From Heterodontus francisci (taxonomy: Eukaryota), in the NCBI RefSeq assembly GCF_036365525.1, contig NC_090417.1:9446152-9510151 (forward strand): a DNA stretch of 64,000 nucleotides, given 5' to 3'. The notes under the pieces were generated by a model. It had not been told where the DNA came from, did no database searches, and worked only from the letters and a program-made list of their open reading frames with translations. Below, piece by piece: positions 37,232-52,822 of this stretch; within the stretch, counting starts at the first letter, position 1, and each line of letters begins with the position of its first letter. Both the position numbers and the translations under genes were made by a program.

Positions 37232-37292
37232 ATGGGTTCAAGTAGCAGAGTGTGGCAATTCCTGTTTCTCATGTTGGCTCTTGTACTGAGAG
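37232..37292 (+). CDS. ASTL: Ovastacin-like astacin protease, exon 1 of 12 (signal peptide)
   Basis: MGSSSRVWQFLFLMLALVLR g|gtagtg; hydrophobic N-terminus; phase 1 fits the next exon. Confidence 0.7.
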
Positions 37293-37385
37293 GTAGTGGC
37301 TGTTTCTCACTTTGTAGAGTTGTGGTCTTGTCTGCAAGATAGACTAATCTCTTGTTTTTAACGCCTGTTTCTATTAATACTGCAG

Positions 37386-37490
37386 CAGTCGGGCAGAGCG
37401 AGATGAAAAGGCAAGTCAGCTCTCGTCTGGATCCCGTTGAAGCCAAGACGACCCTTACAGCAGAGGATGCAATTGTCAGGATTAACCAGC
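37386..37490 (+). CDS. ASTL: Ovastacin-like exon 2 (propeptide)
   Basis: AVGQSEMKRQVSSRLDPVEAKTTLTAEDAIVRINQ c|gtatgt; tandem cagcag acceptor; phase 1 to 1. Confidence 0.78.
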
Positions 37491-37859
37491 GTATGTTCCT
37501 GAATTAACATCTTGGTTTATTTCACTATCATTGGGGGTAAGCTGTTCTTGAGCTACTCCCTGGTAGCTGCTGTATGAGTGTGCGTGAAACTTTTCCTACG
37601 ACTCGAAACTAACTTTCTTGACTGATGAATTCCAGAGACATCACCCCTTGCAATGGAACTGGTTTTTAGAAAGTTACCCACTGTCCTCATGTACTTGCTG
37701 CAGCAATTTATCAACACATTGTTGCAAATGATTAATTACGTTGCAGTCAGCCTAGTGTGCTGTAAATTGTTTTGTGCTGGTTTGAATACTGGTTGCTCCC
37801 TTGATGATCCTGACTGGGCTATGGGATCAAACTGCTACCGTTTGCTCTCCTATTTATAG

Positions 37860-37921
37860 GTATCTTTCAGTATGAAAAGCCCTGGAGGAGCTTCCTCATT
37901 GAAGGGGACATCATCAAACCT
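37860..37921 (+). CDS. ASTL: Ovastacin-like exon 3 (propeptide Asp-switch EGDI)
   Basis: (R)IFQYEKPWRSFLIEGDIIKP|gtaagt. Confidence 0.9.
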
Positions 37922-38836
37922 GTAAGTTCCTTTTCAGTTTTTCCAGATGAATGTGTGATGGTCAGTGGCCCCTCTTAGCTTGACGAGGGGATGATATACC
38001 CTGTTGTTTCATTTCTTCATTCTTCTCCCTGTGGATAAGTGCCTCAGATTGAGGCGAGCTGTTCCTTAACTTTTGGTTATACTTGAGCCCCACTCTCCTA
38101 ATCTTTGAGCACCCACTTTTGGTGGGTTGGAGGGGCCAGGATGGGGGAGGGTTGGTTAAGCTGGAGGATCTTCTCATGGACCTGTTCCTGAGCTGAGCTA
38201 AACAGGTGCAGGACTGCTGGGGCACATGGGTGTGGAGGGAGGGGTTGCTCTGGCTGCAGACTCTATTCTGCAGTCTTGTTCATGCTCGAGTGGTTCTGCA
38301 AAGGGAGTATGCAGTGTTAACTGGTACGCTTGATGCCTTCCATGACCAGTGGGCACTGCAGGGTACACAGTGTCTTGTAGACATGAATAATTTTGTGATT
38401 TGGTTGGGAAGGTATCACTTTGTTTTTGGTGGGACTTGATATTATTTTTGCACCTTTTAGTTTGCTTGGACCATCCTATCTCTACTTATTTAAAAGGTAC
38501 CTGGATATGCACCTGAAGTGCTGTAACCTGCAAGGCTACAGACCGGGTGCTGGAAGGTGGGATTAGATTGGGCGGCTCGTCTTTTTTTTTCAGCCGATGC
38601 AGACACGAAAGGCTGAATGGCCGCCTTCTGTGCTGTAACGTTTCTATAGTTCTATTTCAGTTTGGCCGAAAAGATGCACTTGTGATAATTGGATACTGGG
38701 ATTTTTATTCTAGCTACGAGATACATTGGTTTAAAATTTTAAATCTCTGGTTCATTGTCAATGCTTGCTGTGTATTGGGTGCTCTGATGGGATGCTGTGT
38801 GACTGCAATTGCTGTCTCTTTTGCTGCTCCAATCAG

Positions 38837-38930
38837 CTGTGGAGGAATGCTGTACTATCTGAATCCAAGACATGGCAGAAGTCGCCAGATGGGATGGTGA
38901 GAATTCCATATAAAATATCGCAGCAGTATG
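38837..38930 (+). CDS. ASTL: Ovastacin-like exon 4 (probable activation site and mature N-terminus)
   Basis: LWRNAVLSESKTWQKSPDGMVRIPYKISQQY g|gtaagt. Confidence 0.9.
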
Positions 38931-50378: not shown

Positions 50379-51350
50379 GTGAGGAAGTATTGTGAGAGTT
50401 TGAGGCATTTGGGAGATTGGAGTGAAGGAAGAAAGGGACAGCTTATATTTTTGGGCTTGCTTTCCAAAATCGGCACAGGCAATGGATAGATGTGACGAAA
50501 AGAAAGGTTCTGAATGTGTAAATCTCAAATCATGTTCATTAACATCTGGTAAGACAGAATACAGGTTAACCTTTCCTTTGTATGTTCTTCAGAACTCAAT
50601 TTATTTTTTATTCATTCATGGGACGTAGAAGTCGCTGGCAAAACCATTTATTGCCCATCAGACGGTGATGGTGTGCTGCCTTCGTGGCTTGCTGTGCCAT
50701 TTTAGAGGGCAATTAAGAGTCAACCACATTGCTGTGGGTCTGGAGTCTTGTATCGGCCAGATTGGATAAGAACTGCAGCTTTCCTTCCTTAAAGAACATG
50801 GATTTTTACAACAATCCGGTAGCTTCATGGTCATGAATGCTGATGCTCGCTTTTTAGTTCATATTTGTATTAACTGAATCCAGTTCACAAACTGCTATGG
50901 TGGGATTTGAACTCGTGTCTCTGGATTACTGGTCCAGTCATGTAACCACAATGCAATCATACCCATGTTTGATTGATTGTTGATGGTTAGGCTGTGGCCA
51001 GTTTGGGTACCTGCTTACATCACCCTCTCAGAACCACAGGGGAAAAATGCGATATGGATTTACGAGTTTGATAACTCGAATTAAAGGATTTAAGTTATGT
51101 TGAGAGGCATGTGATGTGTTCACTGGAACAGAGAAAATTAAGGGATAATCTAATAAGAGGGTTCAAAGTTCTTAGTGTTTGAGAGTATAAATTTTGAATT
51201 AGTAGTAAGAACTTGATAGGTACAAGGTTGGGAAACGAAATAGAGTCAATATCCAAACAGATTTTTGTTTTAGAGGTACTATTTATGACATTTTTTGATG
51301 GATGCGATGGTCAGATGGTTGGTTTGATGGGCTTTTTTTTTTAAATGCAG

Positions 51351-51476
51351 GTCGCTACCTGTACCTAGAAGCTTCGTATCCTCAGCAGAGTGGTGAACAG
51401 GCTGCACTCATCAGCCCTCTATTGAGAGGACAGAAGTGCTTGGCATTCTGGTACAATATGTTTGGCAAACATATGG
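51351..51476 (+). CDS. ASTL: Ovastacin-like exon 10 (MAM domain)
   Basis: GRYLYLEASYPQQSGEQAALISPLLRGQKCLAFWYNMFGKHM; typical MAM G.YLY.EAS, L.SP and CL.FWY.M.G; phase 1 to 1. Confidence 0.92.
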
Positions 51477-52032
51477 GTGAGTTGTGAAGGACCCAGACAC
51501 CAGCTTCAAACTTTTACTTGTCATAATTCACAGAAAGTACCTGACTTCAGCTCACTGCCAAAAAAAAGGTTGGCATGAAGAAAACTGCCATTTGTAACTG
51601 TGTGTGATGAAGGGCAGAAATGCATTTATAAGCAGAGGATGGAGCTTGTGAAGACGTGTGTTTGTGTGGTGTAGCTGATGTGCAGTGGGTACTGGAGGGG
51701 ATTAAGTGTGTGGGACTGTGTGGAGGTTAATGTGTAGAGAGCAGGAACTCCTAGATTAGATTAACATTGAAGGAGCAATGTAAATCGGGATGGGAAAACA
51801 CGAGGAAACATCACTTAAGGCAGATGGATTGGTTTATTGCTGACTGGCGGGAAAGCAGCAATGTGATCTTAGATTTGCTTTTGATATTCTCTGTCCACTG
51901 TAAATGACACTATCTTAATGGAAACCTTTTAATCAGGGACACCATGGGGGTGGGGGGGGGGATGCACTTAAGTTTAAAAATCAACTGCATGGAGGAAATG
52001 ATGACGGAGAGTCCAAATCCGTTTTCTTGCAG

Positions 52033-52163
52033 GTTCCTTAAATGTATTCCTGAAATATGAGAACTCTCCTCACTGGCACAAACTGTGGTCCGTCTCTGGA
52101 AACCAAGGCCGGAGGTGGCTAAATGCTGAGATTGATATTTTCACGAATGGGGAGATGTATCGA
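52033..52163 (+). CDS. ASTL: Ovastacin-like exon 11 (MAM domain)
   Basis: GSLNVFLKYENSPHWHKLWSVSGNQGRRWLNAEIDIFTNGEMYR|gtaagt; MAM LW..SGNQG..W. Confidence 0.92.
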
Positions 52164-52669
52164 GTAAGTCAAAATATGGTTTGTGTTGCGTTAAACAGGA
52201 AGGATCAGCATGCAAGCTGCTCAGGAAAGAGTCCCATCAAACATCAACTGTTATTGTCCGGTTAAACTGTTCGGTCTGCTTTGATTCAATTAAATTTAGA
52301 ACACAGGCAGGGGAAACTCCATGACATGGAGAGTTGTGAGGGTGTGGAATTCATTTCCAGGGTTAGTTGTGGCAGAAACTATGTTGCCATTCGATTGGAT
52401 AGATGCATCAATGGAAAAGGTTGAAAGGATATGGCAACAGGTCAGTTAAATGAACAGGATTGTTTGCTCACATGGAGGAGAAATGCTAACACGGACTGGA
52501 TGGGCTGAATGGCCTGATTACCTGTTACAATGTCTGGATGTTTCTTGGTTTATTCTTCAGCCAGGCTGAGCAGCTGCTTGAAGAAACCTTCACCATCCAT
52601 ACCTGGCGTTTAGTATTTTACTGTCGCTCAGTTTCTCTTTACAGATCTGACTCGTCTTTGTCTCTTCAG

Positions 52670-52822
52670 GTGATTATTGAAGGCGTACTGGGACTGAACT
52701 ATCAGAGCGATGCTGCCATTGATGATGTACATATCTACAGAAGCAGCTGTGCTCCAGGCAAGAAGCACCCGCCATCCTGCAACCGCGGCCTGAAGAAAAG
52801 GGACAAATCTCTCATGGGTTAG
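52670..52822 (+). CDS. ASTL: Ovastacin-like exon 12 (end of MAM domain, probable stop)
   Basis: VIIEGVLGLNYQSDAAIDDVHIYRSSCAPGKKHPPSCNRGLKKRDKSLMG-stop; MAM AIDDV...C; AATAAA at 53100. Confidence 0.8.
   Translation: MIIEGVLGLNYQSDAAIDDVHIYRSSCAPGKKHPPSCNRGLKKRDKSLMG

Follow-up and report, generated by a model that had tools for sequence, protein, structure and literature searches.

The DNA analysed here, referred to as the window, is a stretch of 64,000 nucleotides from the shark Heterodontus francisci (NCBI RefSeq assembly GCF_036365525.1, contig NC_090417.1, positions 9,446,152 to 9,510,151 of the forward strand), and its positions 37232-52822 (+) hold a gene for an astacin protease that carries a long spacer and a terminal MAM domain and is, judged from its sequence, almost certainly the shark orthologue of ovastacin (ASTL), the protease that in mammals brings about hardening of the egg coat. 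Splicing of 12 exons at GT-AG ends and translation yielded 3996 nt, i.e. 1331 aa plus stop, exactly as proposed by a first-pass annotation of the window; the product is identical throughout to P0228 (RefSeq XP_067879283.1, 'uncharacterized protein isoform X3', Heterodontus francisci), and an alternative exon 2 acceptor 3 nt downstream (37389) gives a 1330-aa product. The gene is thus real and already annotated, and its layout is largely known, from names in a 2022 supplement and from databases holding models with both Pfam domains.

All exons lie on the + strand. Exon 1 (37232..37292) provides the start codon and a predicted signal peptide (aa 1-21), called from the hydrophobicity profile, and the orthologues P0004 and P0002 start similarly. 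Exon 2 (37386..37490) encodes propeptide, with I-x-x-I-N-Q at its 3' end aligned to the mouse cortical-granule motif, and exon 3 (37860..37921) encodes further propeptide with FLIEGDII, in which Asp72 corresponds to mouse Asp77, the aspartate switch. Exon 4 (38837..38930) contains the predicted activation site R79/N80 and the start of the catalytic domain, and lacks the additional Cys pair found in hatching enzymes. The astacin domain continues with Cys127 in exon 5 (40963..41080), with Cys148, Cys167 and the zinc motif HEIMHSLGFWHE (43499-43534), preceded by a two-residue insertion, in exon 6 (43411..43592), with the Met-turn position Leu231 (TTG, 44559-44561) and Tyr233 in exon 7 (44491..44572), and with the S1' residue Arg259 (mouse Arg264), Cys276 and the domain end in exon 8 (45277..45437). 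Exon 9 (47658..50378; 2721 nt, phase 1-1) encodes nearly all of the spacer, including a Pro/Leu/Ser/Thr-rich tandem array (48804..50072) with a 30-bp (10-aa) unit and higher-order periods, and, from 50231, the first 50 aa of the MAM domain, which continues through exons 10 (51351..51476) and 11 (52033..52163) and ends at Cys1308 in exon 12 (52670..52822), followed by a basic tail with Cys1318 and the stop codon. Searched exon by exon with Pfam, exons 5-8 matched Astacin (6 and 8 above the cut-off) and exons 9-11 matched MAM (9 and 10 above the cut-off), with no other family, i.e. no MATH/TRAF, EGF or CUB, among the 12 exons. The hydrophobicity profile peaks in the N-terminal window (mean 1.5), and since no downstream window exceeds 1.25, the protein has no predicted transmembrane (TM) segment. 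The first-pass annotation had anticipated both the two domains and these absences.

The catalytic domain shares 95/194 residues with mouse ovastacin. As described before, it contains only four Cys and an intact zinc motif (H177-E178-H181-H187-E188); the HEXXHXXGXXH plus E-x-x-R-x-D-R-D signature of astacins (M12A) is present (HEIMHSLGFWHEHARSDRD). Cys127/276, Cys148/167 and Asp72 are aligned to residues 132/281, 153/172 and 77 of mouse ovastacin, which accounts for the two disulfides and the aspartate switch, and His177/Glu178/His181/His187, Glu188, Tyr233 and the S1' Arg259 all align with the mouse enzyme. The Met-turn, passed over in the earlier description, departs from the SxMHY pattern: it reads SILHY, with Tyr233 retained and Leu231 in place of Met. 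Leu occurs at this position in 15/15 chondrichthyan models, in lamprey, alligators, both birds and 10/90 placental ASTLs, and is probably a tolerated ASTL variant. BLAST with the catalytic domain gave 228-239 bits to 4 placental ASTLs, 177-205 to 7 hatching-enzyme types and 140-168 to 7 meprins.

For the orthology, an 89-row quick tree of catalytic domains was reduced to 44 rows, leaving out the complete H. francisci hatching enzymes, which were unrecoverable from 20-kb stretches. The gene grouped with other chondrichthyans (100/100) inside one clade (88/85) with lamprey, bichir, sturgeon, bowfin and tetrapod ASTL, including mouse; this ASTL clade was sister to the hatching enzymes (90/97), and the meprins stood apart at 100/100. 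Placental rows were part of this tree only, the MAM and combined trees being composed of non-placental rows. In the MAM-only tree (39 rows), which is independent of the catalytic one, all 20 ASTL-type MAM rows formed one clade (98/90) apart from the meprin MAMs, so that of the two origins first considered for the shark MAM, retention or gain, retention stands and gain falls away. The combined catalytic and MAM tree (27 rows) gave the ASTL grouping 96/95, and joining its 3 chondrichthyan rows to the meprins was rejected by the approximately unbiased (AU) test (p-AU 0.0012). Introns 2, 3 and 4 lie at mouse positions. NCAPH, TMEM127 and SNRNP200 are found at 9.27-9.33 Mb of the same contig (C47), which places the gene, at 9.48 Mb, 150-220 kb downstream of them, and all three lie together with ASTL within the human 2q11.2 interval, as given in the accessible part of PMC4053953. 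A DUSP gene 85% like the rodent ASTL neighbour is located 8.6 Mb off on the same contig; ADRA2B and CIAO1, also human 2q11.2 neighbours, were not located in the H. francisci synteny comparison. Trees and synteny thus agree with the ASTL assignment of the first-pass annotation, to the exclusion of meprins and hatching enzymes.

Some points count against orthology. The AU tests on the catalytic domain by itself reject neither alternative (p-AU 0.050 for meprins, 0.10 for hatching enzymes), and the hatching-enzyme alternative is testable on that domain only, not with MAM. The nearest neighbours, a p24/GOLD gene and a DEAD-box helicase, differ from those of human ASTL, so the local gene order is rearranged. 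Finally, a 2025 review (PMC12281054), in its accessible part, holds ovastacin not to be orthologous to non-mammalian astacin-like proteins, the opposite of the assignment made here, and calls the origin of its tail unknown.

The neighbours within the window are a 5'-nucleotidase family exon (10342-10518, +), the p24/GOLD gene (27548-29314, +) and the DEAD-box helicase (59878-62038, +), which we take to be NT5DC4, TMED4 and DDX56 from their resemblance; the latter two are presumably adjacent in human, in which case ASTL sits between them here. Open frames at 9132-9893 (-), 13865-14581 (-) and 21371-21841 (+) look, by eye, like fragments of LINE reverse transcriptase and are ordinary repeats. 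A START-domain match at 14.8 Mb of C47 was not assignable to a named gene. A search of the H. francisci genome with exon 6 returned 12 astacin matches, of which one, this gene, is ASTL-like; two of the others are best matched by meprins (C3, C5), three are tolloid-type and six form one cluster on C14 (22.1-22.9 Mb), five of these being best matched by hatching-enzyme types. Three of the six cluster copies are without the catalytic Glu (L002, L007 and L012, with QHHLMH, QHQVMH and QHQLMH) and may be inactive proteases.

The distribution of the layout was assessed with one model per species. MAM is present in lamprey (1/1), chimaera (1/1), sharks (3/7), bichir, sturgeon and bowfin (3/3), amphibians (6/7), turtles (8/11, several partial), alligators (2/2), lepidosaurs (5/14) and the marsupial type (1/3; P0329, a model of 1475 aa whose MAM is partial and which groups with koala and possum). 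It is absent from the models of batoids (0/7) and palaeognath birds (0/2), and from those of placental ASTL (0/90, the 90 being left of 106 ids after removal of 16 rows that were non-placental, unnamed or fused), whose tail has a median of 151 aa; a search among proteins of 738-2351 aa had no placental ASTL among the matches listed. The homologue search listed 120 of 230 matches, and the counts do not bear on teleosts or neognath birds. Many of the MAM negatives are partial or split models, and the MAM parts of Cetorhinus and Callorhinchus are filed as separate genes. Astacin-spacer-MAM is therefore the common non-mammalian ASTL form and not a shark peculiarity, being spread from lamprey to reptiles, which leaves two earlier statements unsupported, that such an architecture stands out within the clade and that MAM marks only meprins among vertebrate astacins. 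The comparison makes it very likely that this is the ancestral ASTL layout, retained in the shark. The argument is weakened by its material, all layouts being gene models, many of them partial, some skipping exon 9 or ending in intron 8. The sturgeon model P0063 has HV for HE in its zinc motif and may be catalytically dead; a second MAM was seen in sturgeon and bichir, partial in sturgeon.

Parts of this layout are on record. The supplement of Nagasawa 2022 (PMC8812170), as far as accessible, labels ghost shark XP_007905686.1, a turtle, a platypus and two frog proteins as ovastacin (Fig. S1), and MAM appears in the legend of its Fig. 2B; as 'meprin' occurs in neither the accessible text nor the accessible supplement, Fig. 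2B probably draws ovastacin with MAM. In the accessible parts of that paper the non-mammalian ovastacins serve as a reference group, with no analysis of their function, spacer or synteny. A 2023 astacin review (PMC9848320), again in its accessible part, covers human ovastacin alone, describing its tail as low-complexity, and groups the astacin-MAM proteins of lamprey and hagfish under meprin-like. The architecture is hence already described in part, as to naming and the MAM legend, and our literature search found no paper treating the spacer or the tail truncation.

The spacer comprises 862 aa. Its part from aa ~661 to 1100 (~440 aa) is 49% Pro/Ser/Thr and 19% Leu with a 10-aa repeat, and aa ~273-660 are 26-32% Pro/Ser/Thr and non-repetitive. 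The long stalk of the first-pass annotation is thus confirmed in length, and its 'mucin' label is an overstatement, about half of the spacer being a Leu-rich Pro/Ser/Thr repeat. No furin-type site is found in the window's spacer, which is alignable only to other chondrichthyan spacers; ASTL-type spacers range from 34 to 2330 aa. A 10-residue repeat period recurs in the spacers of four sharks and sturgeon (P0004, P0001, P0264 and P0063 among them), with differing unit sequences, and the chimaera period is 16 or 32. The MAM domain, a predicted jelly-roll sandwich with two disulfides, is complete, covering profile positions 10-169. The predicted structure of P0229 (89% identical, pLDDT 77) matches MAM structures with E-values of 4e-14 to 1e-9; a MAM homodimer prediction for P0229 gave no verdict (score 0.00). 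Besides the usual four, the MAM region has two more Cys, Cys1191 (end of exon 9) and Cys1318 (exon 12); lamprey, chimaera, bowfin and Pogona have both and frogs have neither, which suggests an extra intrachain disulfide rather than the interchain one of meprins. In meprin beta of the same genome, the first MAM exon is likewise of phase 1-1, its end falling no more than 2-3 codons from that of exon 9, and exon 9 may be a meprin-type first MAM exon expanded at its 5' end.

On the simplest reading, a single ancestral gene encoded astacin, spacer and MAM, and the tail was lost in placentals. Exon 9 begins 13 codons past the last catalytic Cys, and the mouse ovastacin gene has nine exons (accessible part of PMC12281054); with the shared intron positions, a placental tail would correspond to the start of the spacer exon, and the short C-terminal region of placental ovastacin is probably a stump of exon 9. 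Sequence comparison lends this no support, a profile of 75 placental tails scoring at best <0 versus 30 non-placental spacers, with shuffles reaching up to 9 bits. Because the profile matched none of the 30 spacers, the case for a stump is one of exon position. A look-alike stretch in P0329 (L-x-R-L-L-x-A-L) was dropped on the same scores. The models of both Mobula species stop 161 aa past the catalytic domain, at one shared position, and in one Mobula model a MAM exon is still in use, which suggests a separate truncation in rays.

As to function, we favour, with moderate confidence, a shark ovastacin, made up of astacin zymogen, 862-residue low-complexity spacer and one MAM, that is released from the egg and clips egg-coat proteins, its tail holding it in place. 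By analogy with astacin biochemistry, the zymogen would be secreted and kept latent by Asp72, activated by a trypsin-like cut at R79/N80, bind zinc through His177/181/187 and Tyr233, and prefer an acidic P1' residue through Arg259. By analogy with mouse ovastacin, it would be stored in oocyte cortical granules, released at fertilisation, and cleave to a limited extent a coat subunit with ZP-N repeats, of ZP2 or ZPAX type. From the layout, with no TM segment, MAM may attach to the egg surface, to the coat or to itself, and the spacer, probably O-glycosylated, would give the enzyme reach. An egg-coat role in sharks is slightly favoured, and MAM as an anchor is a tentative proposal; in mouse ovastacin the tail is cut off, and this tail remains at the egg membrane (accessible part of PMC12281054), which fits an anchoring role.

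Other results speak against the egg. The cortical-granule motif DKDIPAI(NQGLIS) lies at exon 2/3 as in mouse, where it spans exons 2 and 3 (accessible part of PMC5293279), and is weakly conserved, with 3/7 essential and 5/13 overall residues identical. A ZP2 gene was not identified in the H. francisci genome, with 0 matches to PF23736 and 20 ZP loci read; two of these 20 were compared with the PDB, where too few ZP types are represented for a name to be assigned. Cartilaginous fishes tolerate polyspermy, which weakens a role as polyspermy block. An ASTL orthologue of ancestral layout could act outside the shark egg, as a protease secreted in the oviducal gland, the gut, the skin or another mucosa, the egg role having come later in tetrapods. 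The weak motif and the missing ZP2 would fit this, as would the Pro/Ser/Thr-rich spacer, which is compatible with mucus, and the expression of related C6 astacins in many adult organs (accessible part of PMC8812170). Against it, the sole member with tested function works in eggs (accessible part of PMC12281054), ZP2 is reported as far back as lamprey (accessible part of PMC6262864), a cortical-granule metalloprotease cuts frog ZP2 according to the accessible literature, and ZP-domain genes are abundant in the H. francisci genome (at least 100 matches), so that we consider a non-egg enzyme unlikely, if worth keeping in view. Among the 100 ZP matches listed, tandem arrays were seen on C2 (223-225 Mb, ~20), C48 (10.6-11.5 Mb, ~27) and C36 (45.56-45.81 Mb, ~10); the C2 and C36 exons read are ZP1/4-like by eye.

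The long form might also be minor or exist only as a model, the working protein being a short isoform that ends in intron 8 or skips exon 9, with the spacer-MAM exons rarely joined or a separate unit. Models of five batoid genera end 12-21 aa past the domain, and read-through into intron 8 of the window (45438-45466) would stop after 9 further codons, with an end, KRKGLRNQFF-stop, resembling the ray model ends KGKRNQWL and KTPRNQCF and hinting at a conserved short isoform. Alligator, turtle and Mobula models leave out exon 9, which is of phase 1-1, and the gene is split in some annotations (P0001/P0229, P0231/P0232). For the species 7 sequencing runs were available, 6 of them guessed to be RNA and all without tissue labels; contigs of 4 runs, compared with 37100-48780, had 181 joints, and the 15 of these that were listed included no exon-exon joint and were repeat artefacts. 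Two contigs start precisely at the exon 9 acceptor 47658, but 47618-47656 had been skipped as repeat, and other contigs cover introns 5, 6 and 8. Against a minor or model-only long form, exon 9 has an open frame of 906 codons, of which the first ~500 residues are 45-51% identical across four sharks, it starts without a start codon or signal of its own, its skipping deletes the first 50 aa of MAM, and models that join the parts are on file for lamprey, chimaera, sharks, ray-fins, frogs, turtles, alligators and lizards, all of which makes this reading improbable. That the gene is a meprin-like or hatching-enzyme-like paralogue resembling ovastacin by convergence, as the automatic names 'meprin A subunit beta-like' (two shark models) and 'low choriolytic enzyme-like' (two ray models) and the inconclusive catalytic-only AU tests might suggest, is largely refuted and hardly credible, given the combined tree's rejection of the meprin grouping, the lack of MATH/TRAF, EGF, TM and CUB, four Cys instead of six, the ASTL synteny, and the true meprins and hatching-enzyme-like cluster elsewhere in the genome.

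Taken further, the tethered egg-coat protease would make ovastacin an ancient vertebrate enzyme, built since lamprey from astacin, long spacer and MAM anchor, which was cut ~150 residues into the spacer exon once in placentals and once in devil rays, and whose MAM-bearing frog orthologue (XP_031755136/7) would be the frog ZP2 protease; as a whole, this chain is possible, and we put it forward with reserve. The accessible part of PMC12281054 considers the frog ZP2 protease probably another astacin. If true, a tethered origin explains where the mammalian C-terminal region came from. The trees and synteny contradict that review's statement that no orthologue exists, offer an answer on the tail and yield a testable candidate for the frog enzyme. 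The gain is modest because ovastacins of ghost shark, turtle and frog already carry that name in the 2022 supplement and two-domain models are in the databases; the remaining interest lies in the truncation history and the frog candidate.

Compared with known systems, the shark protein has in common with mammalian ovastacin (mouse Q6HA09, P0163) the four Cys, the Asp switch, the zinc motif, the S1' Arg, the two-residue insertion before the motif, introns 2-4 and the linkage to NCAPH, TMEM127 and SNRNP200. It differs in its Met-turn Leu, in a cortical-granule motif that is only partly kept, and in its 862-aa spacer and MAM, versus a placental tail of ~150 aa and no MAM. The ovastacins of Nagasawa 2022, ghost shark XP_007905686.1 (P0233), turtle XP_025035855.1 (P0403) and Xenopus tropicalis XP_031755136.1 (P0418), belong to the same clade, and the ghost shark and frog proteins show the shark layout, the only differences being the length of the spacer and its repeat unit. 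Hatching enzymes and C6 astacins, the sister group of the ASTL clade, are 44-48% identical and provide the top PDB sequence matches, but have the extra N-terminal Cys pair, CUB in non-teleosts and another chromosomal location, whereas the shark gene has 4 Cys and no CUB. Meprins alpha and beta likewise have astacin followed by MAM, but are 38-41% identical, form a separate clade in all trees, and carry MAM adjacent to the catalytic domain with MATH/TRAF, EGF and TM thereafter; the shark MAM lies 862 aa away and is followed by none of these. Limulus LAST-MAM, amphioxus P0347 and the 'meprin-like' lamprey and hagfish entries (accessible part of PMC9848320, where the lamprey accession differs from P0292) are also secreted signal-pro-astacin-MAM proteins without membrane anchor. 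In amphioxus P0347 the linker is 21 aa long and followed by two MAMs, mollusc-type proteins have short linkers and several MAMs, and both of these kinds lie outside the ASTL clade.

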